A stretch of DNA of 64,000 bases, taken from a virus. Taxonomy: Duplodnaviria; Caudoviricetes. The stretch is taken from the IMG/VR virus record IMGVR_UViG_3300014039_000538, positions 2,460 to 66,459 of that record. One strand, given 5' to 3'. Under the pieces are notes generated by a model. It was not told the origin of the DNA. It saw only the letters and a list, made by a program, of their open reading frames with translations, and did not search any database. The first letter of the stretch is position 1; each line of letters starts with the position of its first letter. The position numbers and the translations under genes are program-made. Of the stretch, positions 3,196 through 62,750 are shown piece by piece.

Positions 3196-3251
3196 GGCGG
3201 CGTAAAGCCGCCTTATTAAAGATACAATTCTGTACCTTAGCAGGTACAGAA
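3196..3251 (-). promoter_or_regulatory. Two hairpins downstream of VR1 (DGR target-recognition elements)
   Basis: 10-bp stem 3228-3237/3242-3251 straddling the stop codon; GGCGGC-GTAAA-GCCGCC at 3196-3212. Confidence 0.75.
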
Positions 3252-5318
3252 AGCCGGGGCAACGCCACCGTAGCTATTGCTGGCAATGTCGCTGTCGCTC
3301 GTACCGTCGTTGTTGACATTGCAGGAGGCGGTGGAGCTCGAGGCGTGCGGCGTTGCTTCCCACCACCAAGCTCTTGAACCGTTATATTTCTTACAACGGT
3401 AATATGAAGAATCACGATAAATCGGATACTGGATATTTGTATTCCATCCGTTTTGGTCGTCTCCGTAAGTTGCAACTCCAAAAACTTCTACCTCTGTCGG
3501 CAGGAAAACTGTATTTCTTACCCATTCGGTAGAACTCTTTTTTGAGATTGCCCTGCTGATTGTATACAGATAATCACTTGAACCAAGTGCGGCACCCAAT
3601 CCGAGCGCAAACACGCCGTCAAGGTAAGTTTTCATTGTGCTTACACTGTAACCGCTGGCATTTGTATCAGAATTATTCATTGCTTTTTGTAACACAACAT
3701 TCTTGAAAGTCCAAAGAATATGATTCTTTGTGTTCTCCATAGAACCGCAATGGATGTAGTGATTGAATCCTGAAATCACAATGCGCAAATTCTGATAAGC
3801 GGCGTTCCAAGTGTAGGTAGTACCGTCCACGGTCAATGAGGGCAAATCGAGATAGTCGCCAATCATCAACCCGGAAAAATCAGCCTTGCCCTCGCCGTTA
3901 CATCTTTCGTGCAGAACTTCCATAGCTTCCGCAACCGTTGTAACTCCAAGAACTGTAAGAAGGTTTCTTCCCTCTGTAGAACCTGTGTTTGCGGTTGCTT
4001 CGTCAATCTCCTGCTTGCGCGCAACATCTTCTTTGTCTTTCGGGGCTTTCGCTCTAAACCTGCCGTCTTTATCGCGGATTACTGCCTTGTTTGCGATTGC
4101 ATAAGGTGAAAAGTCGCTCTCAACAAAGTTCAATTCATCAGTTCCAATCTGCTCAAAGTCGCCGTTAAGGTAGAATACCTTGCCTTTGTTTGTAGTTCCG
4201 GCTTTTACAAATACAAGTTTGTGCTTAAATGCAGCAGGTACGCTTGTTGTGTAACCTGTGTATCTGTTCCATGCGCCCGACTGAACTTCATAGAATCCGT
4301 TTTCTTTTGCGTCTGTCTGGTCTTTCAGGAAGACAAGCTGTCCGATTGATACAGAAACGCCGTCAATAGTCATTTCGCCGCCTGTCGCAATATCAACATT
4401 TGCGGTTGAACAAGCAACCGGCAAATCGTCCAAGAGCGAGAATCTTGAAAGAATGTCGTTACTGTACTTGTACAGATTGTTTACATTGTTTGCCAAAGAC
4501 TGAATCAGGCTTGTTACACTTTCGCTAGATGTAAAATCTACGCCGTGTACGCTCATACTCTGCCCTGTAGGAAGAGAAGACCCCATTACCTGCCCTGAAC
4601 CTGTACCAAAGTCAATATTTGCAGCCTTAATGACTGCGTTTTTATGACTTCCGTCTTCATTGTGCTGCACAAGGAAAGTATAGAAAATGTTTGCAAGGTA
4701 TGACGGATTGAAAGTAGCCGCCTTGTTTGTAGTCCAGTCGGTATTTTCTTTGCCGTATTTTCTTGCGTCGATATTCTTGATAAGGTCGCTTGTGATATTG
4801 TTTGTACCTGCCGGGATTCTTACCTCTGCAAGTTTTACATATCCTGCGTCTACTGCCGGAGCGGATTCAGAACCGTTTGAACCCTTCTTAACTACTACAG
4901 TAAGTTTAATACGCTTCTTTGTATTTACTGTCTGTGTAGTTTTTGTACCTGTAGAAGGGTCGTTGAACTTGCGCGACTGTGAATCGTAGCCCTCTTCTTC
5001 TCCCATAACTTCCACAATGTCGATACGGTCAAGGCTACTGTCAGCCTCTTCAAACGATACCGGCTCTGTAGTATCAGTTTCAGCGATACAAACACCTGTA
5101 CTGTCCTTGTATGCGAAAATCGGCTCAATGGAAACATTCAAGCCGCCCGAACCATAAGGTTTTACCTTGCCGCCGATAACATAATCACCGGCGGAATTAG
5201 ACAAAACCGCTTTGAGTGCTACCGCTACATTGTCGATTGATGAATCGTAGCCGAAAGTAACATCAGCCGCTTTCATAATCTCATTTTCTGCCGCAATAGC
5301 CGTTTTGAAATTTGCCAT
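3237..5318 (-). CDS. Tail fibre/receptor-binding protein with C-terminal CLec-type (DUF6273-like) variable domain; DGR target 1
   Basis: Last gene of the baseplate cluster; fibre-like TIDGV...LKDQT...ENGFY segment; WWW..TP...GVAPAF C-terminus encoded by VR1. Confidence 0.85.
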   Translation of the reverse strand: MANFKTAIAAENEIMKAADVTFGYDSSIDNVAVALKAVLSNSAGDYVIGGKVKPYGSGGLNVSIEPIFAYKDSTGVCIAETDTTEPVSFEEADSSLDRIDIVEVMGEEEGYDSQSRKFNDPSTGTKTTQTVNTKKRIKLTVVVKKGSNGSESAPAVDAGYVKLAEVRIPAGTNNITSDLIKNIDARKYGKENTDWTTNKAATFNPSYLANIFYTFLVQHNEDGSHKNAVIKAANIDFGTGSGQVMGSSLPTGQSMSVHGVDFTSSESVTSLIQSLANNVNNLYKYSNDILSRFSLLDDLPVACSTANVDIATGGEMTIDGVSVSIGQLVFLKDQTDAKENGFYEVQSGAWNRYTGYTTSVPAAFKHKLVFVKAGTTNKGKVFYLNGDFEQIGTDELNFVESDFSPYAIANKAVIRDKDGRFRAKAPKDKEDVARKQEIDEATANTGSTEGRNLLTVLGVTTVAEAMEVLHERCNGEGKADFSGLMIGDYLDLPSLTVDGTTYTWNAAYQNLRIVISGFNHYIHCGSMENTKNHILWTFKNVVLQKAMNNSDTNASGYSVSTMKTYLDGVFALGLGAALGSSDYLYTISRAISKKSSTEWVRNTVFLPTEVEVFGVATYGDDQNGWNTNIQYPIYRDSSYYRCKKYNGSRAWWWEATPHASSSTASCNVNNDGTSDSDIASNSYGGVAPAFCTC
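3250..3354 (-). repeat. DGR variable repeat VR1
   Basis: 13 mismatches to TR in 105 bp, 11 at TR adenines and 2 at non-adenines; IMH-like GCCCCGGCTTTC. Confidence 0.95.
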
Positions 5319-48963: not shown

Positions 48964-49353
48964 TTAAGATTCCCGGAAAATGTATTCAGGATATTGCCAT
49001 TGTACCAGTGCTTTTTTAAGACTGTAAACGGCGTTTTTTCGTGTAATAGGACTTTTTACATCTTCAATGATTTTCTTTCCGCCCTCGCTATACGTGAAGT
49101 CCGCAATATAAAATCTTTCTCTCCTGTTTCCGCCAAATTTCGGACAAATTGAAAACTTTACTTGTCTCTTCAAGTCAGATACAAGTCCTGATTTTTCCAA
49201 TATCAGCAATTCGCTATAACGTGCCGATTCTTTTTTTGAATCAAAGGTTATGCCGTTTACCGTTGTTTTTTTGTTGCCGTATTTCGGTCGTCTTTTGCTC
49301 TTTCCACCCTCGCTTTGTTTGCTTTCGCCACACCATATCGGAATTCTGTTCAT
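48964..49353 (-). CDS. DUF1064-like PD-(D/E)XK endonuclease
   Basis: KYGNKKT..NGITFDSKKES.RY...YIADFTY...IIEDVKS. Confidence 0.8.
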   Translation of the reverse strand: MNRIPIWCGESKQSEGGKSKRRPKYGNKKTTVNGITFDSKKESARYSELLILEKSGLVSDLKRQVKFSICPKFGGNRRERFYIADFTYSEGGKKIIEDVKSPITRKNAVYSLKKALVQWQYPEYIFRES

Positions 49354-49515
49354 TTTCCCACAAGCCCCCGTGCTATTTTTGTTTGAAAATCATCAAAATG
49401 CTTTTTGATTTCCCTGTGCGCTTCTTCCGCATTCATTCCGTCAAAGCAGTAGTCGCCGCTTATGCTCCGCCATGGGCATCTCATCTTCTTTCATTTCTTG
49501 TCCCCTATTTGATTT

Positions 49516-49677
49516 TTATTTTCTGTTAAAGGCTAATTCGCATAGCGATTCTATCTTCTCGTATGCCTCAAGATATTTGTCGTGAACGAAATACCCTTCT
49601 GTGTCATGTATCATAAAATAGTCTGCAAGCTCCTCTATACTGCCAGAATTGGCTGCTTTCCATTCGTCAAAAGTCAT
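49516..49677 (-). CDS. Small hypothetical protein (53 aa, below ORF-track cutoff)
   Basis: Translated by hand: MTFDEWKAANSG...; ATGA overlap with the upstream gene. Confidence 0.5.
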   Translation of the reverse strand: MTFDEWKAANSGSIEELADYFMIHDTEGYFVHDKYLEAYEKIESLCELAFNRK

Positions 49678-49940
49678 ATCCTAAACTCCCATTTGTCATA
49701 GTTATTGCAGACGTTGCAAGGCTCTCTAAGCTCGTCCTTGGACTTATCCAAGATTTCCATTTCTAAACCTTTTAGCCAGTGCTTGCACCTGTCGCAGCAC
49801 TTCATCTTCCTGATGAGTTCGTCTTTCTTCTGGATAATCCCCAGCAGCTCGCATTTCTCTTTTTCAAGTCTTTGGAATTCCGTCAGCTTTACCCACGACT
49901 TATCGTTGAAAACCACAACTTCAAGCTCTTCTTCTGTCAT
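49674..49940 (-). CDS. Hypothetical protein
   Basis: Coupled ORF with CDRCKH...CNVC. Confidence 0.6.
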   Translation of the reverse strand: MTEEELEVVVFNDKSWVKLTEFQRLEKEKCELLGIIQKKDELIRKMKCCDRCKHWLKGLEMEILDKSKDELREPCNVCNNYDKWEFRI

Positions 49941-50704
49941 TTTTTGTTTTCTCCTTTTTCAAACGGCTCTATGAAGAACTGTTCAGCATAAGGTAAAGAT
50001 TCCACCCAATTCTTAAAAACAACGCTCCATTCTGTCAGTTTATGCGGATGAACACATCTTTGGTGATACATATTCAGAACATTCTCATAGCTCATTGTCA
50101 CTGTACGCTTCTGCAACCAAGATTCAGGAAGCAAGCGTATAAGTTCTTTCCAATACCGTTTGTCTTTTGTTTCATTGTATCTAACTCTCAACCATTCAAG
50201 ATTCGGTATCAGTGTGCTTGTCCAAAATTCTTCCATACCAAATGATTCATCACTAGAGATAAAATCATCCATTTCAAAACAATCTCTTGTAATCGGAGTG
50301 CTTGCCAGTTTGTGCATTTTGGAGGTTGAGTTTGCAACTGTTCCGACTTTATATATGTCAAATTCGTTCCACCAGTACATAGGTGCAGTAATATCAACAC
50401 TAACAAATACTTGTCGCAAGAATTTCCGATGCTCGCTTCCTGCTTTTATCAGCCTTTGAGCAAGGTCTAAGTCGTTCTTACCTATGATGTACAAACTTCT
50501 GAATGTATCAAAGTAACTATCATTATCTTTCATACATTCAGAAGAAGATAACTGATGGTTATTAATGTAAAATGGACAATTTTCACAATTTCCACTGCTA
50601 TCGCTACATTCAAAACTATCACTTTTATCCCAACTATTTTTCGGATTTCTCATTCCACGAATAGCGTGTTCGAATCCCCATACTTCTGTTTTCTCAAATT
50701 TCAT
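49937..50704 (-). CDS. ThyX-like phage protein
   Basis: GFEHAIRGMRNP.NSW.KSDS, SEHRKFLRQ, ANSTSKMH, RC.H.HKLTEW. Confidence 0.7.
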   Translation of the reverse strand: MKFEKTEVWGFEHAIRGMRNPKNSWDKSDSFECSDSSGNCENCPFYINNHQLSSSECMKDNDSYFDTFRSLYIIGKNDLDLAQRLIKAGSEHRKFLRQVFVSVDITAPMYWWNEFDIYKVGTVANSTSKMHKLASTPITRDCFEMDDFISSDESFGMEEFWTSTLIPNLEWLRVRYNETKDKRYWKELIRLLPESWLQKRTVTMSYENVLNMYHQRCVHPHKLTEWSVVFKNWVESLPYAEQFFIEPFEKGENKK

Positions 50705-50909
50705 TTTTATACTCCTTTCTCCTGTAACCATCGCAAAGTCCTAAAGGCTCTACGCAAGTCTCCTTCACCCACTCCTGCCGGTTGTAGCAATAAAGAACAA
50801 CTCCAGCCCTCGTGTATGAGTGTCTGCAATTGTAGCAGCACTGTATCGCCCTCAAGACTTTGTATGTCTCGCGGTCTGATATGGTTTCAGGCTCTCCACT
50901 CAAATTCAT
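50694..50909 (-). CDS. Small Cys-rich hypothetical protein
   Basis: CCYNCRH...C...C...CD. Confidence 0.5.
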   Translation of the reverse strand: MNLSGEPETISDRETYKVLRAIQCCYNCRHSYTRAGVVLYCYNRQEWVKETCVEPLGLCDGYRRKEYKNEI

Positions 50910-50920
50910 CCCTTATGCTC

Positions 50921-51121
50921 CTACAGAAACGCATTGAAATCCTTTTTGAAGACATAGCGCGCGGCGATTCTCAATCTCTGAAAGAAGTTTGCGCTCCGTG
51001 CTTTTGCTTCTATGTATGTCCTCACGTCTTCAAAAGCCGACTTGTATCTGCTGTTTATTGCTTTTCGTATCTGCCTGCTATATCTGCCGCTCATTCTGTT
51101 GCCTCTGGCAGTTCTGCCCAC
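50921..51121 (-). CDS. Hypothetical protein
   Basis: Basic ORF in the accessory cluster. Confidence 0.45.
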   Translation of the reverse strand: MGRTARGNRMSGRYSRQIRKAINSRYKSAFEDVRTYIEAKARSANFFQRLRIAARYVFKKDFNAFL

Positions 51122-51537
51122 GCCTCAAGCTCGCTCCAGTCGTAGTCTTGAAAAAAGAAGCCTGTATCGCCACAGTCAAGAGTATCAACCGCAAAACCAT
51201 GCTTAGTTTTAAGAAGATATTCCTTTCCTTCTTCCGCCGGATTATCAGCTGTTATGCAGCCGTCCTCGTCAGGCTCGTCAAAACATCTCACCCTGTGCCA
51301 TACAAGGGCGGATTTTTTCAAAGATTCATTTTCTTTTGCTAACTTCTCAAGATGATTCTTTCCGCATTGAAGTTCACGTTCGTTTTTCTTGCCTACTTCG
51401 TAGCCGTCTGCTTTTCCTTGGTCGTAGCCGTCTGCATATCCGTCTTTGTATGCCTGCCTTAATTTTGAATTTGCGTGTACGCCGCATACTTTCAGTTCAT
51501 ACACACTCGCTTTTTTCTCTAGCTCTTCTTCTGTCAT
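51091..51537 (-). CDS. Hypothetical protein
   Basis: MTEEELEKK start; GY.DGY..G repeats. Confidence 0.6.
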   Translation of the reverse strand: MTEEELEKKASVYELKVCGVHANSKLRQAYKDGYADGYDQGKADGYEVGKKNERELQCGKNHLEKLAKENESLKKSALVWHRVRCFDEPDEDGCITADNPAEEGKEYLLKTKHGFAVDTLDCGDTGFFFQDYDWSELEAWAELPEATE

Positions 51538-51550
51538 CTTGTTCTGCCTC

Positions 51551-51853
51551 CTATACACACATTAAGTCGCTTATAATTTTCAGGACTTCCTCTTTTGTGT
51601 AGCCCTCTTTCTTTTCTCCGCTGATTCTGTCCGCATACGCGCTTATGTTCCTGAATGTTCTTGCCTTGCTTTCCTGAACCGCGTCCGCAGCGTCAAGGGC
51701 TGCTCTGATGATGTCAGTCCAGTTCTCGGCTTTCTTGTACGCCCTGTAGTAGCGCGGAATTCCGCTGGACTGGTATTCCCTCTCGTTCTCCGCATAGATT
51801 TTCTCGAATCTCGCAAGCTGCTTTCTTGCGAATGTCGCTAGCTCTTCTGTCAT
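51551..51853 (-). CDS. Hypothetical protein
   Basis: AGGAG RBS. Confidence 0.6.
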   Translation of the reverse strand: MTEELATFARKQLARFEKIYAENEREYQSSGIPRYYRAYKKAENWTDIIRAALDAADAVQESKARTFRNISAYADRISGEKKEGYTKEEVLKIISDLMCV

Positions 51854-51862
51854 TCCGTCTCC

Positions 51863-52294
51863 TTATGCTTCCTCTTCAATTTCTCTCCGCATTTTCTCAA
51901 TCTCATCATCCGACTTTCCGTCTATATCATCCTTCACATAAGGTGAGTTTCTGCACGCATTGCAGAACAGACAGGCGTTATGGGTAACCGTCTTGTGGCA
52001 AGGGCAATCGGGAGCACATTCCTCAATGAATTTTGATTTATTTTTGTTTTCATTCATGCTTTTATCCTCCGTTCTTTCCCTCATCACAAGCTCAAAAGGT
52101 ATGTCCGCAAATCTGATGATGATTTCCTTTTTCTTGTTCACCGCCTGATTCAGAAACCACTCGAACGTGGCTTTCAGAACTTCGTCTGTTACATCCTCTT
52201 TCTTGCCGGTGAACTTTATAACTCCGTTATCAAGCTCCTTAGCTGTTCCGTAGTAAATGCGGTTTGTAAGTCCGCTTATTGCAAACTGTTTCAT
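51863..52294 (-). CDS. Hypothetical protein
   Basis: ATGA-coupled ORF. Confidence 0.6.
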   Translation of the reverse strand: MKQFAISGLTNRIYYGTAKELDNGVIKFTGKKEDVTDEVLKATFEWFLNQAVNKKKEIIIRFADIPFELVMRERTEDKSMNENKNKSKFIEECAPDCPCHKTVTHNACLFCNACRNSPYVKDDIDGKSDDEIEKMRREIEEEA

Positions 52295-52548
52295 TGTCTG
52301 TTCCCGTCTAAATAGTGTAAAATTGGAATGTTAGCGGCTATTTTAAAATCAGGCTCTTCATATCTTACACAAATACCGTCACTCATCTGATAAAGCACAT
52401 CTTTCATGAAATGTTTTTCATCAGGATTTTTCTCATCAAGAAGAACCACTATCTTCTCACAAAAAGACACATATTTGAAAAAGTACTCTTCCGCCTTGTC
52501 GGCAAACCTTATAAGCTGTTGTTTCTCTTCTTCTGTAAATTTATTCAT
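52291..52548 (-). CDS. Hypothetical protein
   Basis: Likely start MNKFTEEEK. Confidence 0.55.
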   Translation of the reverse strand: MNKFTEEEKQQLIRFADKAEEYFFKYVSFCEKIVVLLDEKNPDEKHFMKDVLYQMSDGICVRYEEPDFKIAANIPILHYLDGNRQ

Positions 52549-53051
52549 AGATACTCCTCTATTCCGCAAGGGGAACCGTCAAGATAAGTATACGCCTCAG
52601 CAAACTCCGGAAGAGAAACCCATTTCTGGAGATACACAGAATCATTGTCAATGTTTGTAACCAGTTTTTTATTACCGCAAGCCGTCTGCACCCAAATCAG
52701 CGGACAGTACATCGGATTGTTCTTTCCGCTCCAGCCGCCGTATGAGTTGTAGCGTTTCTTGAAGTCCTCTATCATCTCGTCCGTGTCCTTGTATGGGCGG
52801 AACTTCTTTTCTTTTGGTTCTTCAACAAGATAGAAAAGGTTCCAAGAATCATAATCTCCGACTAAATTTTTAGCTAAGAATCTAAATTCTTCGTCTGGCT
52901 TTAATATTTCTTTTATGGTGAAAAAGTTGTCCTTTTTATTATGAATCACACACTGCAACTCATAAAGGTTATCAGCAAAATATCCCTTGCTTCCAATCTT
53001 AACTTCATCAGCATTCAATGCTGTGTAAACTTTGCTCTTGTCAAATTCCAT
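52545..53051 (-). CDS. Hypothetical phage protein
   Basis: MEFDKSKVYTALNADEVKIGSKGYFAD...YTYLDGSPCG; AGGAG RBS. Confidence 0.65.
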   Translation of the reverse strand: MEFDKSKVYTALNADEVKIGSKGYFADNLYELQCVIHNKKDNFFTIKEILKPDEEFRFLAKNLVGDYDSWNLFYLVEEPKEKKFRPYKDTDEMIEDFKKRYNSYGGWSGKNNPMYCPLIWVQTACGNKKLVTNIDNDSVYLQKWVSLPEFAEAYTYLDGSPCGIEEYL

Positions 53052-53071
53052 AATTTGTCTCCTTTCAAATT

Positions 53072-53129
53072 ACTCCGGCGTAAAGCCGGGTGATTCAAGA
53101 TACTTAATTACACGCTAGTCGCGTGTAAT
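53072..53129 (-). promoter_or_regulatory. Two hairpins downstream of VR2
   Basis: 9-bp stem 53107-53115/53121-53129 over the stop codon; CCGGC-GTAAA-GCCGG at 53075-53089. Confidence 0.75.
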
Positions 53130-53828
53130 CAGGAAAGCCGGGGCAACGCCACCGTAGCTATTGCTGGCATCGGCGTTGTTGCTATAACCGATGCTGTGGA
53201 CACCGCAGAAGGCGGTGGAGATCGAGGCGTGCGGCGATTTCAGCCACCACCACCATATATCACTATCATCGTTTAACACTTTGATTCTGTTTTTTCTTGA
53301 CTTGAAATATTCAAGGTCTTCAAACACCTGCTCTTTTGTAAGCAAGCTGCAATCCTTGACATCTACACCGATAGCCTTAACAAGCGCGTTTCTAAAAGCG
53401 TTTTTGAGATAACCGCCTAATTCTGTTTCTTCAAAGTCGCCGCTCTTTACATAATCTTCATCAATGCAGTGTCTGAAAAGAATATTTTCAAAGTTGAACA
53501 AAACGCCGTCTTTCCTTACATCAACCGCAATTACCGGCACGTTCTCAAGATTGATTTCTTCAAAACTTCCAGTCGCTTTTACTGTAAACTTCTTGATATA
53601 GAATCTGTCGCCGACTTTTACATATTTGTCAGCCTCAAGACTGTTGACTGCCTGTTTCACGTCCCTGAAAGTCATTGGTTTTCCGGGCTTTTCAAGTTCA
53701 CTGCTACAGCCTTTTTCAGATTCATTATCTGATTCAACAAAAATGGTAATACCTTCCGTTTCGTTTTCAGAAAATCCGGCAAGTTTATAACCCTGTTCTT
53801 CGATTGCTTTAATAAGTTCCCATTTCAT
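53115..53828 (-). CDS. DUF6273/CLec-like protein; remote DGR target 2
   Basis: C-terminus WWWWLKSPHAS...GVAPAF encoded by VR2; no signal peptide or transmembrane segment apparent. Confidence 0.9.
   Translation of the reverse strand: MKWELIKAIEEQGYKLAGFSENETEGITIFVESDNESEKGCSSELEKPGKPMTFRDVKQAVNSLEADKYVKVGDRFYIKKFTVKATGSFEEINLENVPVIAVDVRKDGVLFNFENILFRHCIDEDYVKSGDFEETELGGYLKNAFRNALVKAIGVDVKDCSLLTKEQVFEDLEYFKSRKNRIKVLNDDSDIWWWWLKSPHASISTAFCGVHSIGYSNNADASNSYGGVAPAFLITRD
53134..53238 (-). repeat. DGR variable repeat VR2
   Basis: 15 mismatches to TR in 105 bp, all at TR adenines; same IMH-like end as VR1. Confidence 0.95.
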
Positions 53829-53838
53829 ATTTTCCCCC

Positions 53839-54357
53839 TTAGTTTTTTCCGTTCACAAGTTCCTGACGTTCCTGAACTGTCATTTCATTCCACGGCTTAA
53901 CCCCTTTTATGTTTAGTTGTGAGAAAATCGCCATTAAGCAACTTTTCACAATCGCATTTCCTGCCTGTTTGTAAAGCTGCGTTTTACTGTTCACTTCCGC
54001 CGCTCTGTTATAATCAGCGTCCGTGTAGTTCATCAGCCGGAAACATTCTTTAGGCGTTAATTTTCTAATCACGTATTTCATATTTCTTGCCTCTATAACC
54101 TTTGGTTGAATCCCCCCCCCTGCACAAGTAGGGATTGTCGGGCAAACGCCATATCTTGAATAAACGCGGTTCGCGCTCTCAAAAGTATGGTCTATGGTGT
54201 TATCCATTTGCCCTATGACTTCTACGCTATTTTGTCTTGTCAGCACGTTCACCCTCGCATTGTTTGCTCGTAAGGTTGGGCATCCCCCCCAGAAAACTCT
54301 GTTTTCTTGTTCAAAGCCGGATTCTTCAAGTAGTCCAAGCATTTGTAACTTAATCAT
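53839..54357 (-). CDS. C5 DNA methyltransferase C-terminal part (TRD-like units plus motifs IX-X)
   Basis: IRKLTPKECFRLM...LYKQAGNAIV; own AGGAG-N7-ATG; G7 (54284-54290) and G9 (54112-54120) tracts. Confidence 0.85.
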   Translation of the reverse strand: MIKLQMLGLLEESGFEQENRVFWGGCPTLRANNARVNVLTRQNSVEVIGQMDNTIDHTFESANRVYSRYGVCPTIPTCAGGGIQPKVIEARNMKYVIRKLTPKECFRLMNYTDADYNRAAEVNSKTQLYKQAGNAIVKSCLMAIFSQLNIKGVKPWNEMTVQERQELVNGKN

Positions 54358-54553
54358 TGTTTAGCTCCTGCACTAAAAGCGGTATATAACCGCCACCAGT
54401 TCCCATTGACGAACATAAACAAGTACAAACTCCGTCAAGTTTTATGCTTTGGTGTTTTTGCTCGCCGCCGATTATCACGAATACTTGACTAGGTTTTATA
54501 TGAAGTTTGCAAAAATCTGTCCGTCTCTCCAAACGCTTTTTACCAGTTCCCAT
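54350..54553 (-). CDS. Stand-alone TRD-like methyltransferase segment
   Basis: GGAG-N6-ATG; QKHQS...GVCTCLCSSMGTGGGYIPL resembles the GVCPTIPTCAGGGIQP unit of the next ORF. Confidence 0.5.
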   Translation of the reverse strand: MGTGKKRLERRTDFCKLHIKPSQVFVIIGGEQKHQSIKLDGVCTCLCSSMGTGGGYIPLLVQELNND

Positions 54554-54662
54554 AAATCACTCCATTTTGAACATCAAATCCAGTTCCAAACCCCTTGTAA
54601 TCTCTCGCCATAAGAGTTTTTGCTACCGTGTTTCCTACGGTCTTAATTCTCTTGTAGTTCAT
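54540..54662 (-). CDS. TRD-like methyltransferase segment
   Basis: VAKTLMARDYKGFG...QNGVI; this frame is open back to the heptamer repeat. Confidence 0.45.
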   Translation of the reverse strand: MNYKRIKTVGNTVAKTLMARDYKGFGTGFDVQNGVIYGNW

Positions 54663-54797
54663 CAAACAAGGAAACAACTCCTGTTCCGTCAGATTGCAAG
54701 TTTGAGATTCCTGCGTCATATCGTGCTTTAATACAGTTTGCCCTTGAAAGTTTTTTCGGCTCTCGTATTGACAAATCAACTGCACATTGGCATGATT
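54643..54797 (-). CDS. TRD-like segment, out of frame with the MTase N-terminal part at the current repeat number
   Basis: ANCIKARYDAGISN...GTGVV; in frame if the repeat count is a multiple of 3. Confidence 0.5.
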
Positions 54798-55624
54798 CTC
54801 TGCTCTCTGCTCTCTGCTCTCTGCTCTCTGCTCTCTGCTCTCTGCTCTCTGCTCTCTGCTCTCTGCTCGATTGCCGGCAATATACCCCTAGCAACTAAAC
54901 TTTCAATCAGTTTATCCGCCTTTTCGCTCGTGATAAAAAACTGCTCGTCTACTTCCGTTTCTAAGTAGTCGTCTATCACTTTTTCAAGCGGTATGCTTTC
55001 AGGAAAATTAAACTCTATAAAGTCGTCTGAAAGCACACTTACCATAAAGCAACGCTCGCGATTCTGCGCCACTCCGTAATCTGCCGCGTTCATATCCGCG
55101 ATAAAATTACAGTAGCCTCTCTTCCGCAAGAACTCCGTCCAACTGTTAAAGTCGTCAATGTTCTTGTCCTGATGTACCTGCGGCACATTTTCCATAAGCA
55201 AGATGTCGGGAAGATTATCACCGCACTCCGTAAGAATCCGCTCTACTTCCCAAAGCAAACCCGACCGGGTAGACTTACCCTCCAGCCAGTCTTTTTTGCT
55301 CATACCCTGCATTTTTCCTGCCACCGACAAATCGGTACACGGAAACGAGTAAGTAAGTAAGTAAGTAAACTCATTCCGCCTTTCGATTCCTAAGTCAATA
55401 GCGTGTATATCTCTTACGTCGCTTGTTGTAAAGTTTGTGCCGTGAATCGCGTTGTAACTCTTCACTGCGTATTTATCAAACTCAACAAGTTTGTAATGTT
55501 CAAAATCAGCACCTATATCGCGCAATGCCATTGCCTGCGAGCCGATTCCGCCAAACAATTCTATAAGTCTGATTTTCTTTTCCACCTTCACTTCCGGGAA
55601 GTCAAAAAGACTTTGTCCTTTCAT
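54776..55624 (-). CDS. C5 DNA methyltransferase N-terminal part (motifs I-VIII)
   Basis: IELFGGIG, YSFPC, ENV, QNRERCF; stops 7 codons after the repeat. Confidence 0.9.
   Translation of the reverse strand: MKGQSLFDFPEVKVEKKIRLIELFGGIGSQAMALRDIGADFEHYKLVEFDKYAVKSYNAIHGTNFTTSDVRDIHAIDLGIERRNEFTYLLTYSFPCTDLSVAGKMQGMSKKDWLEGKSTRSGLLWEVERILTECGDNLPDILLMENVPQVHQDKNIDDFNSWTEFLRKRGYCNFIADMNAADYGVAQNRERCFMVSVLSDDFIEFNFPESIPLEKVIDDYLETEVDEQFFITSEKADKLIESLVARGILPAIEQRAESREQRAESREQRAESREQRIMPMCS
54798..54867 (+). repeat. Perfect heptamer tandem repeat (CTCTGCT)10
   Basis: Counted: 10 units with 7-nt period inside the MTase reading frame. Confidence 0.95.
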
Positions 55625-55959
55625 ACCCTCTCTCCGAAAATCACATACATCATTTGTTCAAGCGTTACGCTTCCGAAAGTCTCTTCAAAGCGCGCTTTTA
55701 CATCAGGTTTTATAAGTTCCGTTGTAAGAATATCGCGGTATTCCTGCGCTTTTTCGCCGTAACATTCAAAGATTCTTTTGTAAAACTCATAAGAAAAACC
55801 ACGGTCGCCGCTGCTTACAAGTGAGACGTACCCCGGATTGAATCCAAGTCTTTTACTCTGTTTTGCGACTGTCTCACCGAAATCAACGCGCAATTTTCCC
55901 AAAACTTTACCTACTTCGTTTCTAAAACAAGACGTACTTGAAAATCCCATTTTTCTCAC
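55621..55959 (-). CDS. HTH (XRE-like) protein
   Basis: GKVLGKLR...ETVAKQSKRLGFNPGYVSLVSSGDR. Confidence 0.55.
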   Translation of the reverse strand: MRKMGFSSTSCFRNEVGKVLGKLRVDFGETVAKQSKRLGFNPGYVSLVSSGDRGFSYEFYKRIFECYGEKAQEYRDILTTELIKPDVKARFEETFGSVTLEQMMYVIFGERV

Positions 55960-55965
55960 CTCACA

Positions 55966-56454
55966 TTAAAAAGGAATATCTTCCGGGAATCCGTCTTCTG
56001 ATGTTCCCATATCCTCATTACCGGCGTTATTTGCCGTTGCAAAACTCTTCTGCGGCGTAAAACTGCCGGTAGGGTTTCCGTTATTTTGAAAGCCACCGTT
56101 ATTATTACCGTCTGATTTTCCGCCTAAAAGCTGCACCGAATCAGCAACGATATAAACTTTTGAACGGTTATTGCCGGTTTCTTTGTCCTTCCAACGGTCT
56201 TGTTTCCAGTAACCATTTACCGCAATCTGTTTTCCCTTGCTCATGTAAGGTCTGAGGTTTTCAGCGGTCTTACCCCAAATAAGAACTTCAAAGTAATAAA
56301 CTTCGTCCGTCCACTCGTCATTTTTCTTTACGCTCTTGTTTACGGCGATACTTACATTCATTCTTGCCGTTCCGCTAGGTGTATAAGCAAAATTGCGCTC
56401 GTCAATGTCATGTGTAAGCCGTCCGATAACATTGTAATCATTTAAGTCTGTCAT
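55966..56454 (-). CDS. ssb: Single-stranded DNA-binding protein
   Basis: IGRLT.D...WGK.AE....KGKQIAVNG; acidic DIPF C-terminus. Confidence 0.92.
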   Translation of the reverse strand: MTDLNDYNVIGRLTHDIDERNFAYTPSGTARMNVSIAVNKSVKKNDEWTDEVYYFEVLIWGKTAENLRPYMSKGKQIAVNGYWKQDRWKDKETGNNRSKVYIVADSVQLLGGKSDGNNNGGFQNNGNPTGSFTPQKSFATANNAGNEDMGTSEDGFPEDIPF

Positions 56455-56460
56455 ATTTTT

Positions 56461-57246
56461 TTATCCCCTCTTTGCCCTGTAATCAGGTGCTTTTATCGTG
56501 ATTATTGCCGAGTTCTGCCTTAACCGGCTCAAAACATCGTTATTCACAAATCTTTCAAAACAAGAATCACAACCTTTTTTCGGGCAATCTCTTAAAAGGT
56601 GTGTATTTGTAAGAATCATAAACGGCAAGTCTCTTGTATGTCGTTTATCCAAAATATAACTAAGCCAGTTCAATTCTGCGTCGCTGCCTTTAGTTCTACC
56701 CATTTCGTCAATTACAAGCATAGGAATTGACGCCAAATCCTGCACAATTTCAAGTTCTGTCTTTTCTGCTCTTGCGGAGTAACTCATACGAATCATCGTT
56801 GTAATTTCGTACATTGACAAAATCTTGCCGCCAAGTGCCTTAACCGCCATACTTCCCAAGAAGGTTTTCCCCACTCCGTTAGAGCCTAACAGAATCACTT
56901 TCCCGGATTTTTCAGCAATCATTTTATTTACCGCTGCAAGTGCTTTTTCCTGCTCCGGCGTTTGCGGAATAAAGTCTTTTAATTCTTTATCCCAGTATTC
57001 AGGCTCGATATTGCGCGATTTATACATCGCTTCACGCTCGCGGCGTATGTATTCAGCCTGTCGCGCAAACTCTGCTTCCTGCTCTTTTTGACGCTCTTCT
57101 TTTTCGCACTCCGGGCAAACATATTCACGCTCGTCGCCGTATTCAATGTAACGCCCCCTTACTTTGCCGTGCTTTTCGCAAGTGTAGTCGCAATCGCAAG
57201 CTGTAAAATGCGGTATAAGTCCGCTAAACTTATCTGTTCCGTTCAT
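56461..57246 (-). CDS. DnaC/IstB-like AAA+ helicase loader
   Basis: CEKHG...CPEC zinc motif, GSNGVGKT, LVIDEMG, ILTN, SRL. Confidence 0.85.
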   Translation of the reverse strand: MNGTDKFSGLIPHFTACDCDYTCEKHGKVRGRYIEYGDEREYVCPECEKEERQKEQEAEFARQAEYIRREREAMYKSRNIEPEYWDKELKDFIPQTPEQEKALAAVNKMIAEKSGKVILLGSNGVGKTFLGSMAVKALGGKILSMYEITTMIRMSYSARAEKTELEIVQDLASIPMLVIDEMGRTKGSDAELNWLSYILDKRHTRDLPFMILTNTHLLRDCPKKGCDSCFERFVNNDVLSRLRQNSAIITIKAPDYRAKRG

Positions 57247-57257
57247 GCTCCGCCGCC

Positions 57258-58181
57258 TTACAACCGGATTTTACCTTCTAGCGGCGAATCTTCCGCGCCG
57301 TCCTTCCGCTTCAAGAAGTTCTCAACCTTGTAATTTTCCGGCAAGAATCTAAGAATCGTTTTCTTTTCGCAAAAGTGATAAAAGTCCTGCTCGCTGTTCC
57401 ACCAAGTTTTACCCTGCTTTTTCAGTTCCATAACTTCCGCATAGTTCTTTACTGCCTGAATTACATCGTCGCTATGCAGGTGAAGTTTCTGCAATTCACT
57501 GTTTGCAAGTCTAAAATCGCGCATTGTAAAGGTGATTAAGTTCCCTTTGCAGCATGGCAAGTTATGAGAGAATAAGACATCAAATACCTGTTCTGCGTAA
57601 TTCTTGCGCGGCTCTGATTGTGTCTCATACTCAAACTTTTCTCTTGCCTCGCTCTGTTCCGGCGTTTCTTCCTGAACTTCTTCTTTTGGTGTTTCAGTTG
57701 TTAAGGATTCCTTTACAACTGATTCAGCTTCTACTGGCGATTTCTTTTTATCCTCGCCGTTGTCAGCTTCCGGCGGTAAACAGTCGTAATGCTCCGCAAA
57801 AGTTTCTGTATCGCCGGCTTTTTTTGTCTTTTCACCGTCTTTGAGTGAATAAATGCCGGTAGATTTTTCAATAAGCTGCGCTTTTTCTTCCGGGTAGTTT
57901 GTATCTTTCACACGGTCGCCGCGAATCTTATTGTTAATTTTCCAGTGCTTTATCACATAGATTCCTGAATCAAAGCGAATCATAAAACCTTTAGTAACAA
58001 GAGTTTTTAAGTCGTTTTCCTGTGCTCCGCACATTCCGCAAATCCGGCGTGAACTGTTTATAAAGCCTTCGTCGTCGGCGTTCATTGCCATGTGAAAGTA
58101 CAAAGCCTGTGCAGAAAACGGCAAATCTAAAAATGCGTCCGATTCTGTGATAGACTTTGAAAACATTCTCCGCTCTGCCAT
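57258..58181 (-). CDS. Phage replication initiator/replisome organizer
   Basis: MAERRMFSKSITESDAFLDLP.SAQALYFH....ADDEGF...IKHW; likely start 58181. Confidence 0.8.
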   Translation of the reverse strand: MAERRMFSKSITESDAFLDLPFSAQALYFHMAMNADDEGFINSSRRICGMCGAQENDLKTLVTKGFMIRFDSGIYVIKHWKINNKIRGDRVKDTNYPEEKAQLIEKSTGIYSLKDGEKTKKAGDTETFAEHYDCLPPEADNGEDKKKSPVEAESVVKESLTTETPKEEVQEETPEQSEAREKFEYETQSEPRKNYAEQVFDVLFSHNLPCCKGNLITFTMRDFRLANSELQKLHLHSDDVIQAVKNYAEVMELKKQGKTWWNSEQDFYHFCEKKTILRFLPENYKVENFLKRKDGAEDSPLEGKIRL

Positions 58182-58200
58182 TTCCGTTACCCCCTTGTTT

Positions 58201-59217
58201 TTAGTCAATTCTTTTTGCGGCAAGATTTATAATTGCGGTCTTGTCGTAACCGATTCCGTTATCTGTGAGTAATTCCTTGAAAGTCGCAATCTGTCTTGCG
58301 CTGCCTTTCAAAACAATTCCCGGAATAATTTCAAGCCCCATTTCATCAGCAATAGCGCGTACACTGTCAATCTCACTTTCGTTTCCAAAAACATTGAAGG
58401 TGTAAACCGTGCCGCCTGTAGCTGCTGCCGGTGCTGCCTGTTTTGGAGCAACTTTTTCTACTTCGCGTGTTTCAAAATTGACATTGTAAGTGTCTTCAAC
58501 AGGCGCGCTTTCAGGTTCTTTTGTTTCTTCTTCCTGAATCCCGAAAGTTTCATTTTCTGCCTTTTCTTTTTCTTCGCGCGCCTTCTTTTCTGCTTCCAAC
58601 TGCGCAAGGCGATCGCGATTTGCTTTTAATTCTGCGCCCTTGTTTAAGGTCTGCTGCAAGTTGAGCGTGGACAGATACAAGTCCTTGAGAATCGCGGTGT
58701 CTTCGCCGAACGCGTCCAGTGAGGCAAGGTCGCCGGTAATATTTTTTATGATTGTGTCAATTTCAGCGTCTACCACTGCAAGTTTAGTAGTCTTATTCAG
58801 CCATTTTGTATTAAAAACGCGTTCGAGCGGCACAAGATTGAAGTTTTTGCCGTTCCAAAGTTCCGCAATCTGCGCTTTTTTATGTGCCTTTTCCTCTTCC
58901 TCTTTTGCCTTTACAATGACATCGAGTTTGCCGCTTGCGGTCTTCATCATGTCGCAAGTTTCTGAAATGATGTTCTTAAACTCTGCAAATGGCATATTCC
59001 ACTCTTTTTCAAGTGCGATTCTGCGGTCGTTCAAAGTCTTAATTGCAGCGTTGATTTCTGCCTTGTCTTTTGCAGCCTGTTTAGCGTCTCCGGCGTAATT
59101 GTCTACCGAATATTCTTTAAGTTTTTCCTCGACATACGCTTTAATGTCTTTTGCGTTTGTTACAAGGTTTCCAAGTGTTTTTTCTTTGATTATCAATGAC
59201 AAAGGATTTGTTTCCAT
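58201..59217 (-). CDS. DUF1351-like protein
   Basis: AKDKAEIN......LNDRRIALEKEW..PF.EF...; NKTT. Confidence 0.65.
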   Translation of the reverse strand: METNPLSLIIKEKTLGNLVTNAKDIKAYVEEKLKEYSVDNYAGDAKQAAKDKAEINAAIKTLNDRRIALEKEWNMPFAEFKNIISETCDMMKTASGKLDVIVKAKEEEEKAHKKAQIAELWNGKNFNLVPLERVFNTKWLNKTTKLAVVDAEIDTIIKNITGDLASLDAFGEDTAILKDLYLSTLNLQQTLNKGAELKANRDRLAQLEAEKKAREEKEKAENETFGIQEEETKEPESAPVEDTYNVNFETREVEKVAPKQAAPAAATGGTVYTFNVFGNESEIDSVRAIADEMGLEIIPGIVLKGSARQIATFKELLTDNGIGYDKTAIINLAAKRID

Positions 59218-59221
59218 TTCG

Positions 59222-60061
59222 TTATCCCCTTAATGCTAATTCTGCTAAGTTTTCAACCTGAACATTTTCCGACGTAGTCCATTGTGGAATCTGTAAATGT
59301 CCGGCTTTTTCAAACGCTCTTTCTACTTTTCCGCGCAAGTGCGGATATTTTTCAAAAAAAGCGTTCCAACCGTGTGCGTGGAAAAACTCATGTTCCTCGC
59401 GCGTCAGGGCAAGCACATTCCAAGCGCAATCTGCGAACTGCGGCGCGCTTCCTCGGCTTACGATGTGATGGCAATCTACGCTGCCGCCTAAACCGCTCGC
59501 CTCGCTGTAAACCGCTCTTTCTCTCCACTCGCTTACCGTCATATCGTCCTTAAAATCGTGTTCCTGCTTGCCGCGCCATATTTCCCACTCGTAGAGAACT
59601 TTTCTAACATCAGCTTGCAAGTCGTAATTAAGTTCGCATTGTGTAGCCAAGTGATACAGCAAACCGTCAATAAATCTTGCAGCCGCAACCGTGTTAGATT
59701 CTGAAATGTGTACCGCCCTTAAAGTGTCCTTCCTAAGCCTTGAAGGTATCTTGTCTGCATACTCTTCCAGTAAATCTAAATACAAGTCGTAGCGTTCGCT
59801 TTCTGTAGGTTTCCTGTCTTCCATGCTCTCGAAAATAACAGTGATTAACTTCCACACGCTGTTAAGCTGCTTATAGGTTCTGTGCTGAAATTGCGCGTCA
59901 ATTTCGCATTTCAAAAGAATCTCGCTCTTGCTGCGTTCTTCTCTAGCTTTCTTGCCGTTGAAAAGTCTGCAAATAAGCTGCAAGTCTTTTGAATCGGCGG
60001 CGCGCAAAACAATTTGATTCTTGTATAAAACGCCGTGGAAGAATCCTGTTATTTTCACCAT
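59222..60061 (-). CDS. Putative HNH-type nuclease
   Basis: DCHHIVSRG...LALTREEHEFFH..G...F; likely start 60061. Confidence 0.6.
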   Translation of the reverse strand: MVKITGFFHGVLYKNQIVLRAADSKDLQLICRLFNGKKAREERSKSEILLKCEIDAQFQHRTYKQLNSVWKLITVIFESMEDRKPTESERYDLYLDLLEEYADKIPSRLRKDTLRAVHISESNTVAAARFIDGLLYHLATQCELNYDLQADVRKVLYEWEIWRGKQEHDFKDDMTVSEWRERAVYSEASGLGGSVDCHHIVSRGSAPQFADCAWNVLALTREEHEFFHAHGWNAFFEKYPHLRGKVERAFEKAGHLQIPQWTTSENVQVENLAELALRG

Positions 60062-60068
60062 CCACCCC

Positions 60069-61019
60069 TTAAAAAAGTCCGTCTCCTGCCGGAATTTCAC
60101 TGTTGCCGTCGTACATTTCAGCCTGTGCGTCAAAAGCCGCGTCAATTCCTGCGTCGTCAGGAATTTCTGCCTGTGTTTCTGTCTTCTGTCTGATTTTTTC
60201 AGGCTCTTTTATTTCTGTGTCAATCACGTTTTCCGGCGAATAGTCAAAGTCTTTTGTAACCGTGTACTGATTGCCGTCCTTGATGATGTTTGTCTTAATG
60301 ATTGCGCTGTCGCCGTTTACTGCCTCTGCAATAAGCTCTGCGTTTTCAACTGCCTTCGGCGCATACTTCAAAACCTTTTTAAGAACGGTCTTTTTTGCCA
60401 TGCTTTCCGGGTCTGTAGTCCACGGCGATGTATAGCCCTTTTTCACGCTCTGTGAGTATTTTTTAGCATGATTCATTACGGCTTCCCATGACATAACCTC
60501 GAACGCGCTCGCGCCGTTTTTCAGCTCGTAAAGTCCGTAAACATAAATCGGCTTGTCTGATTTTTCGCGCGGTCTGTGAATAAGCTTCTCTTCCAGCCCG
60601 TATGAATAATCAAAATCGTCGCCTTCGTAGACAATGCGCGCAACGATTTTCTTGTACTGCCCGGTTCGGTAGCAAAGGTCAATCAGTCCCTGATAGCCTA
60701 ACTGGAATTGTGTTTCAAGCACGCCTTTATTCTGATACGGAATCAAGTAAGCCTGTCCGAGCGGCGTGTTGCACTCAAGTCCAAGCTGTGCGCTTGTAAG
60801 AAGTGCGCCCATAAAAGATTCCGGCGTAGAGTTCGCAAGTTTAGCGTCCTTTGAAAGTGCGGTGAGTGCAATTCTCATCATGCGTTCTGGCGTGATGTTT
60901 GCAGGAAGCGCGTTTTTAATTTGGTCGCTCATTTTTGCAACCCACTGTTTCAAAGTCGGCTTTGCGCCGTTGTTTACATTTGCAAGTTTTGTATTTGCGT
61001 TGTTTCCGTTTACATTCAT
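60069..61019 (-). CDS. recT: RecT-family single-strand annealing protein
   Basis: AQLGLECNTPLGQAYLIPY...QFQLGYQG...W......MAKKTV. Confidence 0.9.
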   Translation of the reverse strand: MNVNGNNANTKLANVNNGAKPTLKQWVAKMSDQIKNALPANITPERMMRIALTALSKDAKLANSTPESFMGALLTSAQLGLECNTPLGQAYLIPYQNKGVLETQFQLGYQGLIDLCYRTGQYKKIVARIVYEGDDFDYSYGLEEKLIHRPREKSDKPIYVYGLYELKNGASAFEVMSWEAVMNHAKKYSQSVKKGYTSPWTTDPESMAKKTVLKKVLKYAPKAVENAELIAEAVNGDSAIIKTNIIKDGNQYTVTKDFDYSPENVIDTEIKEPEKIRQKTETQAEIPDDAGIDAAFDAQAEMYDGNSEIPAGDGLF

Positions 61020-61032
61020 GTTTTCAGGTCTC

Positions 61033-61620
61033 CTAAATAAGGGCTACGCCCAGTTTGAAAAGTTTTCTGGCAACTTCTCTTGTCGCCTTAATATCTGCTA
61101 AAGCGTCATGCGCATTTTCAAGATTTACGCCCAAGTGTTTAGCAACCGTTCCCAGTTTTCTGTCAGGCAAGTACGGTAATGCTTTTTGCATACCGGCTTT
61201 TTTTACCTGTACAAAAACATCAGCAATAATGTTTGAGAAGTAGTCCTCAAACTTGTAACCGTTTCTTTCAAGCAACGCTTTCAGGTGCTTAATGTCAAAC
61301 TCGACATTGTAACCGGCTATAACTAACTTCTCGCTCTTGCTTCCGTCCTTCTGCCAAAGTTCGCGCGCCTCTACTAAGAAGTTCGCTATTTTCGGCATTT
61401 GCTCCCTCTCGTCAGGAAATGACTTTATATCCTGCTCCGAATATCCGTGTACCTTTCCGGCTTCCTCGTGATACTTGATTGTGTCATTCAGCGGATTCAG
61501 GAAGAAACACCTTTCACAAACCACGTTTCCGCCGTCCACCAAGATAAACGCAAGCTCAAAAGCTGCCGAATCAGCGACTTCAATCCCAGTCGTTTCTGTA
61601 TCAAGCCATAAAAACCGCAC
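61033..61620 (-). CDS. DEDDh 3'-5' exonuclease
   Basis: LDTETTG, AGYNVEFD, AHDALAD. Confidence 0.85.
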   Translation of the reverse strand: MRFLWLDTETTGIEVADSAAFELAFILVDGGNVVCERCFFLNPLNDTIKYHEEAGKVHGYSEQDIKSFPDEREQMPKIANFLVEARELWQKDGSKSEKLVIAGYNVEFDIKHLKALLERNGYKFEDYFSNIIADVFVQVKKAGMQKALPYLPDRKLGTVAKHLGVNLENAHDALADIKATREVARKLFKLGVALI

Positions 61621-61741
61621 TTTTCACCTCGATATTCTGTCGTTTCTGCTCATCAGCCCAACGCTTTATGAAAACCGCGCGGTTGATTTTCTTTTCCCGA
61701 AAATCAACTATGATTTTTTTGAACTCTGAAAAATCAAGCAT
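61601..61741 (-). CDS. Small hypothetical protein (46 aa)
   Basis: Translated by hand: MLDFSEFKKIIVDFREKKINR...; overlaps both neighbours. Confidence 0.4.
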   Translation of the reverse strand: MLDFSEFKKIIVDFREKKINRAVFIKRWADEQKRQNIEVKSAVFMA

Positions 61742-62750
61742 CTTGCATCTCCTTTAATTTTGTGATTCTAAGAACGCGGCTTACACTGTTTTTTGTGTAC
61801 TGCTCGTAAATTCCGGCTTTCTTCAGCGCGTTTGTGTCAATACGCTTTGAGGTCTGCGTATTGTAAGTTATCTTCCACGCTCCGATGACTGCCGTTGATT
61901 TTTCAGTGTTTTCTCCGTTGCTTGCGGCACTCATACGCATAAGAATCTGCTCTTTGATTGCGTCCGATTTCGACTGCAAATCTTTAATCTGCAAGTCGAT
62001 AGCCTCTTTTTCGTCAAGCATTGTTTCACAATCGCCGTCAAGTTCGATTTCTGCCGCCATAGGCAAGGATTTTACAAGTTCAAGTTCGTTTTCGTTTCCT
62101 GTAGGTGAAGGCGCGTTATCTGCAAGTACATTGTTTTCCCAAAAGTCTGTTTCGCGGTCGATAAGCTGCGCAATAAAATCATCGTTGCGCGGAATTACAT
62201 AATGTCTGCCTTCGTACTGGTCGAAAATAAAAACGGTGAGAACAAACCATGAAAGCCCGGTAACTGCCATATAGTGCTGCACTTGTGCGTAGTAACTGTC
62301 AGGGATTTCATCGTTTGTGAATCCCTCGCCGGTGCGTGATGTTTTAATTTCGTGTCCGCCAAGACCACTAACAACACTACCGGCGATTTCTTTTTCACCG
62401 TCCACAAAAACAAGTCCGTCAAAGTTCGCGTTCATAAACTCATGTTCTTTGTTGCGGAACATTCCCGGAACTGTCTCAATCTCAATTCCCAAGTCGGCGC
62501 GCGCCTTCTGTCTGATAGGGTCTTCAAGAATATTGCCCCATTCAGTAGCCTTATTGCCTTCAAAACTTGCAAAATCCTTTTTCGCAAGATAAACGCTTAA
62601 AGGCGTTGAGTACTTGTTAAGTCCCAAAATCGCCCCTGCGTCAGAACCGCCGATTCCGCTAGTTCTAAGTTTTAGCCATTCTTCATGGGTAAACTCGCTT
62701 GTGTCTGTAAAGTTCACATTTCCAAGTTCAAGAACTTTTTCATACAACAT
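61734..62750 (-). CDS. YqaJ-like (lambda-exonuclease family) recombination nuclease
   Basis: WLKLRTSGIGGSDA, ANFDG, EIKT, YYAQVQHYM. Confidence 0.9.
   Translation of the reverse strand: MLYEKVLELGNVNFTDTSEFTHEEWLKLRTSGIGGSDAGAILGLNKYSTPLSVYLAKKDFASFEGNKATEWGNILEDPIRQKARADLGIEIETVPGMFRNKEHEFMNANFDGLVFVDGEKEIAGSVVSGLGGHEIKTSRTGEGFTNDEIPDSYYAQVQHYMAVTGLSWFVLTVFIFDQYEGRHYVIPRNDDFIAQLIDRETDFWENNVLADNAPSPTGNENELELVKSLPMAAEIELDGDCETMLDEKEAIDLQIKDLQSKSDAIKEQILMRMSAASNGENTEKSTAVIGAWKITYNTQTSKRIDTNALKKAGIYEQYTKNSVSRVLRITKLKEMQDA

Follow-up and report, generated by a model that had tools for sequence, protein, structure and literature searches.

The DGR cassette and its two target genes

The DNA analysed here, referred to as the window, is a stretch of 64,000 nucleotides that corresponds to bases 2460-66459 of a 66.5-kb provirus record in IMG/VR, the completeness of which is estimated at 83%. 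It carries a DGR cassette on its minus strand, composed of a reverse transcriptase (RT) gene at 998-2248 (RVT_1; phrog_1423 at 4.6e-81), a gene at 2652-3152 for an Avd-like accessory protein (phrog_3206, 'Avd protein of DGR', at 4.3e-7) and, between avd and the RT gene, the template repeat (TR) at 2514-2615. On the same strand, target gene 1 (3237-5318) adjoins the gene for baseplate J and encodes a fibre-like protein of 693 residues, with VR1 (3253-3354) at its end.

Target gene 2, also on the minus strand, is located at 53115-53828 and encodes a protein of 237 amino acids, which is predicted to consist of an N-module (residues 1-32), a disordered linker (34-48) and a DUF6273/C-type-lectin-like domain (approximately 50-237). 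VR2 (53137-53238, minus strand) occupies codons 198-231 of this gene, and 13 of its positions are templated by AAY codons.

An identical RT protein is encoded on at least 23 contigs. Despite this identity, the TRs at positions 4634-4735 of contigs L094-L096 show three differences from the window TR at 2514-2615, all of which fall at adenines of the window TR (A to G, A to G, and A to T), and the TR of contig L098 shows a single difference, at a non-A site. Since the TRs differ under an identical RT, the template itself drifts, mostly at adenines.

Relationship of VR2 to the template repeat

A repeat search of the whole 66.5-kb record revealed three in-register copies, namely the TR (2510-2629), which is A-rich and contains AAC and AAT codons, VR1 (3249-3368) and VR2 (53133-53252); no fourth TR/VR copy is present elsewhere in the record. 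Over a core of 102 nucleotides, VR2 and the TR differ at 15 positions, every one of which is an adenine in the TR. With 34 adenines among the 102 core sites of the TR, the hypergeometric probability of this outcome is 5.3e-9. VR1 shows 13 mismatches to the TR, 11 of them at adenines, and the two non-adenine mismatches lie at 3325 and 3300.

Five TR adenines are mutated in both VR1 and VR2, and four of these carry the same substitution in the two repeats, for which the chance probability is approximately 0.045. The identical substitutions hint at sibling cDNAs, at conversion from one VR to the other, or at an older state of the TR.

Both VRs terminate in GCCCCGG-C-TTTC, where the TR counterpart reads GCCCCGG-A-TTTT. 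In VR2, the GC-rich stretch and the IMH-type end (GGTGGCGTTGCCCCGG-C-TTTC) span 53133-53155 on the minus strand, are the same as the end of VR1, and are two bases off the TR. Two hairpins follow. Hairpin 1 (53107-53129, minus strand), with a 9-bp stem and a loop of 5 nucleotides, overlaps the stop codon of target gene 2 and is kept in homologous loci; the DNA fold around it is predicted at -15.1 kcal/mol. Hairpin 2 (53075-53089, minus strand) reads CCGGC-TTTAC-GCCGG, and its core is present after VR1 too. The presence of two hairpins 3' of each VR is reflected in z-scores of -5.5 for VR1 and -4.8 for the 75-nt stretch 3' of VR2, while no hairpins were found 3' of the TR (z -1.25).

The original prediction had placed a second DGR target 50.6 kb from the cassette, with 15 mismatches confined to TR adenines and an IMH-like end in common with VR1. 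All three features withstood closer analysis: the linear record separates VR2 from the TR by 50,623 nt, the mismatches are adenine-specific over the entire 102-nt core, and both VRs end in GGC-TTTC as opposed to the GGA-TTTT of the TR. The other way round, in a circular form of about 70 kb as judged from contig NODE_144, the distance from the TR to VR2 would be approximately 19 kb.

Natural variation at VR2

The database contains 95 full-length homologues of the target 2 protein. The five closest (P0001-P0005) depart from the window protein almost exclusively within residues 200-225, the lone change outside this segment being one substitution at residue 184 in one of the proteins. The same pattern is seen at the level of DNA, where contigs L005 and L006 are identical to the window gene over codons 1-196 (pS = pN = 0) and yet possess a different VR2. 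When the VR2s of these two contigs are compared with the TRs of their own contigs, all 13 mismatches (13/13) fall at adenines. Similarly, two related records, G001 and G002, have a common TR and different VR2s.

Across 58 homologues of at least 65% identity, the mean entropy is 2.38 bits at A-templated VR codons versus 0.29 bits at non-A VR codons (p 1e-6), and approximately 0.5 bits in the rest of the protein. A single cluster at 90% identity comprises 186 distinct sequences, and the 15 members that were aligned display 15 distinct VRs upon a nearly invariant scaffold. The dN/dS ratio of 0.15-0.3 over codons 1-196 signifies purifying selection on the scaffold, and the 13 AAY codons of the TR provide coding room for some 8e18 protein variants. 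An invariant VR2 across populations, which the original prediction took as an observation that would speak against it, is thus not what is seen, as near-identical phages carry different VR2s and the entropy test sets the A-templated codons apart.

Together with the 15 of 15 mismatches at adenines, the IMH and hairpins in common with VR1, and the restriction of the repeat to three copies in the record, these comparisons of sequences leave very little doubt that the one DGR of the prophage genuinely targets the 237-aa gene in trans, and that it does so at present.

Two further observations were made on the alleles themselves. In six homologues (P0003, P0010, P0111, P0117, P0121 and P0122), the VR contains an insertion of one codon inside the AAY-templated run, which is not a product of plain adenine mutagenesis. 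In addition, two samples, represented by contigs L005/L096 and L006/L094, have the same VR2 allele and different VR1 alleles, the reverse of what has been reported for the phage Shimadzu in mice.

Domain structure and predicted fold of the target 2 protein

The target 2 protein matches Pfam PF19789 (DUF6273) with a score of 35.8 bits against a cut-off of 23.5, the match covering profile positions 107-170 of 172, which is the C-terminal third only. It is predicted to be soluble, with a pI of 5.0, and no signal peptide and no membrane or hydrophobic segment were detected in it. The AF2 model, computed from 96 sequences, has a pLDDT of 74, falling to 54-65 in the VR part; it depicts residues 1-32 as a module of a helix plus a beta-hairpin, residues 34-48 as a disordered acidic linker, and residues 50-237 as a globular domain, in which the variable residues are placed on a predicted hairpin at 206-220.

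Residues 70-232 align with residues 484-690 of the phage's own fibre, the product of target gene 1, with 24% identity (E 3e-15), and this alignment marks target 2 as an ancient copy of the fibre-tip domain that now stands alone. A Foldseek search against the PDB returned nothing at E <= 0.001, and the matches in BFVD were other small DUF6273 phage proteins only. In a wide structural search, the best match was chain 9qa6_A, the N-domain of the Thomasclavelia ramosa IgA protease (Z 4.8 over 126 residues, rmsd 3.8), a domain called C-type-lectin-like by its authors, and Lcl (8q4e) was matched with a Z of 3.0. The sole profile match was to the same chain, 9qa6_A, with an E of 0.03. The predicted structure is consistent with a C-type-lectin fold for the target 2 domain.

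The 32-residue helix-hairpin module is the only N-terminal element in the protein, and an HMM of this module run against all ORFs of the window matched only target 2 itself. Neither longer nor fused versions of the core (residues 50-196) turned up in a search, albeit one that gives weak evidence. The earlier description of the N-terminus as looking neither fibre-like nor exported agrees with the lack of a signal peptide or membrane segment and with the dissimilarity of the N-module to the other ORFs of the window.

Genomic context in the early operon

Target gene 2 is part of an early operon on the minus strand (48964-62750), the gene order of which is matched in relatives. In the direction of this strand, the operon encodes YqaJ, an RNase T-like exonuclease, RecT, a 307-aa protein, DUF1351, DnaD-like and DnaC-like proteins and SSB, and it continues with a 112-aa protein, a C5 methylase, target 2, several small genes and a DUF1064 resolvase, after which come the terminase and portal genes. 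A GGGGGA ribosome site precedes the target 2 start codon, which comes 10 nt after the stop codon of the gene before it, and a promoter and terminator scan by target 2 found nothing above shuffle expectation. Target 2 sits 4.7 kb upstream of the small terminase gene and, in all relatives examined, outside the late structural module. Its assignment to the replication and methylation region, as first proposed, is in agreement with its neighbours in the window, which include the C5 methylase and SSB, and with its position in the early block of every relative examined.

The C5 methylase separates the 112-aa protein from target 2 only in the closest relatives of the window. In contigs L007, L011 and L012, which possess this backbone too, target 2 immediately follows the 112-aa protein with no methylase between, and this order rules out an obligatory coupling to the adjacent phase-variable methylase. 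The upstream methylase itself (window 53839-55624) is split around a heptamer repeat, and L005 and L006, two independent contigs of approximately 69-70 kb from near-identical phages, both break exactly at this repeat, which suggests heterogeneity of repeat number within the samples.

A paralogous family of small DUF6273 targets, with 243-249 amino acids and variable only in the VR, is found beside RecT in the YqaJ-RecT recombination module. Its members include a gene downstream of YqaJ at L007 4184-4915, and another between the RNase T-like exonuclease and RecT at L099 3436-4182. The linker of these paralogues contains four invariant cysteines (CxC...CxxxC), which possibly form a zinc site. 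The RecT-side slot resembles the position of gam in phage lambda, which is an analogy of position.

In a further clade (G001-G003), in which the homologues are 41-46% identical, the small target is the second gene of an operon divergent from a CI-type repressor, with DUF4406, DUF1351 and methylases downstream. The three-copy arrangement of the DGR, with mismatches at A only, recurs in G001 and G002, where VR2 is located 15.5 kb from the TR on the opposite strand. In this clade, the small target has the DUF4406 gene (L014 11070-11441), which is nucleoside deoxyribosyltransferase-like, close behind it; in the phage type of the window, a DUF4406 gene directly follows the CI-type repressor (L093 9384-9707). 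A search for fused forms of DUF4406 and the lectin domain recovered only DUF4406-only proteins.

Distribution and association with the DGR

The distribution of target 2 was assessed in approximately 27 IMG/VR records whose relatedness was judged from the large terminase. In these, target 2 occurs only alongside the cognate RT, in the window, G001 and G002, and two further carriers of target 2 are fragments without the cassette region. Target 2 is absent from near-complete relatives, one of which is a record that has terminal repeats and is 100% complete, and the large terminases of the relatives that lack it have 79-84% identity (TerL). In one of these relatives, the backbone of SSB, 112-aa protein and methylase is present without target 2. 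The possibility that target 2 is a core gene of the phage lineage was rejected on the basis of these near-complete genomes.

The exception to the pairing of target 2 with its cognate DGR is an orphan in G003 (L016 9770-10585; L031 11524-11921), in which a VR of the G001 type, still similar to the TR of that type, the IMH and the hairpin are retained. The only DGR in G003 is unrelated: its RT shows 26% identity, and a TR and a VR of its own lie 285 nt from each other. Aside from this orphan, target 2 occurs only with its cognate DGR and is missing in relatives, which implies that it is an accessory gene that travels with its DGR.

The homologues in genome assemblies derive mainly from Treponema MAGs of the gut and rumen, and the source phage is a Treponema prophage. 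A tblastn search against GenBank phages yielded nothing, and PADLOC, NCBIfam and PHROGs returned no defence, anti-defence or functional match for the target 2 protein or its small neighbours.

A possible role for the target 2 protein

These observations can be drawn together in the following model. The TR transcript would be copied by the RT and Avd with adenine-specific errors, and both VR1 and VR2 would be replaced by the resulting cDNA, with their common GC-rich/IMH end and the downstream hairpins as guides. The replacement would re-randomise approximately 20 codons, 13 of them AAY, and the variable codons would map to a beta-hairpin predicted in the DUF6273 (C-type-lectin-like) domain, which stands on its own. 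The product may be an accessory protein, soluble and made early, that binds its ligand within the infected cell and not as part of the virion, with the 32-residue N-module perhaps serving as a handle for oligomerisation or docking. Its ligand would be expected to vary between host strains.

We regard the chances that target 2 is an early, off-virion binder as about evenly balanced. The intracellular binder against host defence that the original prediction put forward would be compatible with the gene order. The off-virion reading is favoured by a location in the early operon that recurs in two clades and in the paralogue slot of the YqaJ-RecT module, three contexts in all, and by the analogous case of phage Toutatis, by the lack of recognisable export or fibre-attachment features, and by the dispensability of the gene in relatives with a similar terminase. 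If it holds, the ligand would most sensibly be sought among host proteins that vary between strains, defence nucleases for example. Conversely, the off-virion reading is weakened by the fact that all phage DGR targets whose function is known to have been tested are receptor-binding proteins of the virion, and by the homology of the domain to the phage's own fibre tip; gene order, moreover, bears only indirectly on when and where the protein is made. It is likewise weakened by the lack of a match to any known anti-defence family and of a conserved adjacency to the methylase, and by the weaker selection on the VR2 alleles than on the VR1 alleles of Shimadzu.

The homology to the fibre tip and the common TR would be expected of a virion-borne accessory adhesin, or second receptor-binding protein, that is coded outside the late module. 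Such a protein would be made early or throughout infection, and its N-module would dock on the fibre, baseplate or capsid, so that adsorption is widened or tuned. The predicted succession of anchor, linker and binder would fit a tethered adhesin, the VR residues are often Tyr, Ser, Gly or Asp, as on other binding surfaces, and the published readings of nd4/nd12 tgt2 (PMC10743442) and of Toutatis gp24 (10.1101/2024.10.15.618418) point the same way. However, the small target belongs to the early operon in all clades, and its paralogue lies inside a recombination module. Moreover, the N-module is unlike every other protein of the phage, relatives with 79-84% TerL identity manage without target 2, and fused fibre-like forms of the core were not found, although this last piece of evidence is weak. 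An adhesin of this kind is a strong rival, albeit one that we consider less likely than not.

It is improbable, in our view, that target 2 is a mere passenger with a conserved early function and no need of variability, its VR2 being rewritten only because a duplicated fibre-tip module has left it with the IMH and hairpins. The orphan in G003, which persists beside an unrelated DGR, would suit this explanation, as would the weak selection on the Shimadzu VR2 alleles (10.1101/575076) and the Toutatis analogue, which is core in 98.8% of phages of which only 68% have a DGR (10.1101/2024.10.15.618418). Yet the IMH and both hairpins have been kept across clades that are only 41% identical and in two paralogous slots, the gene occurs in this lineage only with its cognate DGR, bar the orphan, and the scaffold is under purifying selection while massive change in the VR is tolerated. 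More remote still is a role in exclusion or sensing, whereby the protein would detect parts of competing phages and so shield the lysogen or the infected cell, by analogy with the DGR-diversified sensors of cellular immunity. While intracellular DGR targets are known in bacteria (PMC10053308) and the small target lies beside the immunity region in the G001 clade, the protein has no effector domain, neither it nor its neighbours have a PADLOC match, and the operon runs in the lytic direction with no evident lysogenic promoter.

Should the small targets act inside the cell, as the off-virion reading would have it, then DGRs diversify more than host attachment. A broader form of this proposal, in which temperate phages of several phyla possess an early, intracellular, 'antibody-like' binder that is diversified by a DGR against the defence or nuclease proteins of new hosts, is tentative and rather unlikely. 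Its free lectin-fold domain would be randomised afresh all the time, so that a part of the phage population could neutralise such proteins. If true, such a binder would constitute an adaptive counter-defence arm alongside receptor switching. The small-target family is abundant and cleanly defined, and hence offers a tractable test case.

Comparison with known DGR systems

The layout of one DGR with two targets, a tail protein and a small remote protein, is already published for gut phages. In this respect the novelty of the locus was overstated in the original prediction, as small remote targets have been published for the phages Shimadzu, Toutatis, Lelie/CP11 and nd4/nd12, and these consist of DUF6273 only where a domain is given. 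The present analysis extends the published layout from Bacillota gut phages to Treponema prophages, and it provides comparative clues beyond the discussion in the published accounts compared: the small target belongs to the early operon throughout, may occupy either of two slots, one of which is inside an exonuclease-RecT recombination module, and is a dispensable gene that accompanies its cognate DGR. Roux et al. assumed unannotated viral DGR targets to be structural.

The Roseburia phage Shimadzu has VR1 in a tail gene beside the RT and VR2 elsewhere, in orf43 (Cornuault et al., bioRxiv 10.1101/575076). As far as can be judged from this published description, it resembles the window in that a single phage DGR serves a VR in a tail gene and a remote VR in another gene. 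Both of its VRs undergo adenine diversification at the level of reads, in virions and in mice, and selection on the VR2 alleles is weaker than on the VR1 alleles (10.1101/575076). The two systems differ in host phylum, which is Bacillota for Shimadzu and Spirochaetota here, and in the evidence for activity, which consists of reads for Shimadzu and of variation between samples for target 2.

In the Faecalibacterium phage Toutatis, the second VR gene and the TR are 17,480 nt apart; among 173 phages the gene counts as core, with 98.8% of them carrying it and 68% carrying a DGR, and it was read by the authors as Mtd-like (iLund4u preprint, 10.1101/2024.10.15.618418). Inspection of the FP_Toutatis record (NC_047915) showed that gp24 is a protein of 215 aa annotated as DUF6273, that its gene is situated among early genes, between two DNA methyltransferases and replication and antiterminator genes, and that 13 of the 14 mismatches in its VR are at adenines. 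Like target 2, gp24 is therefore a small DUF6273-only protein encoded by an early gene far from the cassette, with an A-specific VR. However, the two share similarity at the level of motifs only (E 0.025) and are of the same kind rather than orthologues. The VR is internal in gp24 and at the extreme C-terminus in target 2, and gp24 is core in Toutatisvirus with or without a DGR, whereas target 2 is accessory and tied to its cognate DGR. In the same record, the RefSeq CDS gp80 (49048-49200, 50 aa, 'DUF6273 domain-containing protein') overlaps the TR at 49076-49179, between avd and the RT gene, and is probably not a gene.

'Small DGR targets' have also been described in the Lelie/CP11 phages (PMC11792537). 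In other gut phages, nd4_tgt2 and nd12_tgt2 are proteins of 234-294 aa that contain DUF6273 only, and they were modeled as a single C-lectin-like globule with flanking short helices and a hypermutated beta-hairpin, the VR being at the 3' end of the gene (Baykov et al. 2023, PMC10743442). Target 2 matches them in its DUF6273-only composition, in its predicted lectin-like domain with a hypermutated hairpin, and in its 3'-end VR. Yet while nd4/nd12 tgt2 were described within the DGR cassette and read as receptor binders, target 2 is located 50.6 kb away in an early operon.

Finally, the DGR of Bordetella phage BPP-1 (Mtd, TR, bRT, bAvd and IMH) provides the likeness for the overall process, which is adenine-specific mutagenic retrohoming into a C-terminal VR of a lectin fold, a fold that is predicted for target 2. 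A GC-rich/IMH end with a downstream hairpin is found both in BPP-1 and here, and Guo et al., in 2011, are said to have established that the hairpin is required in BPP-1. The principal difference resides in the target itself: Mtd is a trimeric tail-fibre tip protein encoded beside the cassette, whereas target 2 is remote, small, and without recognisable fibre-attachment domains.
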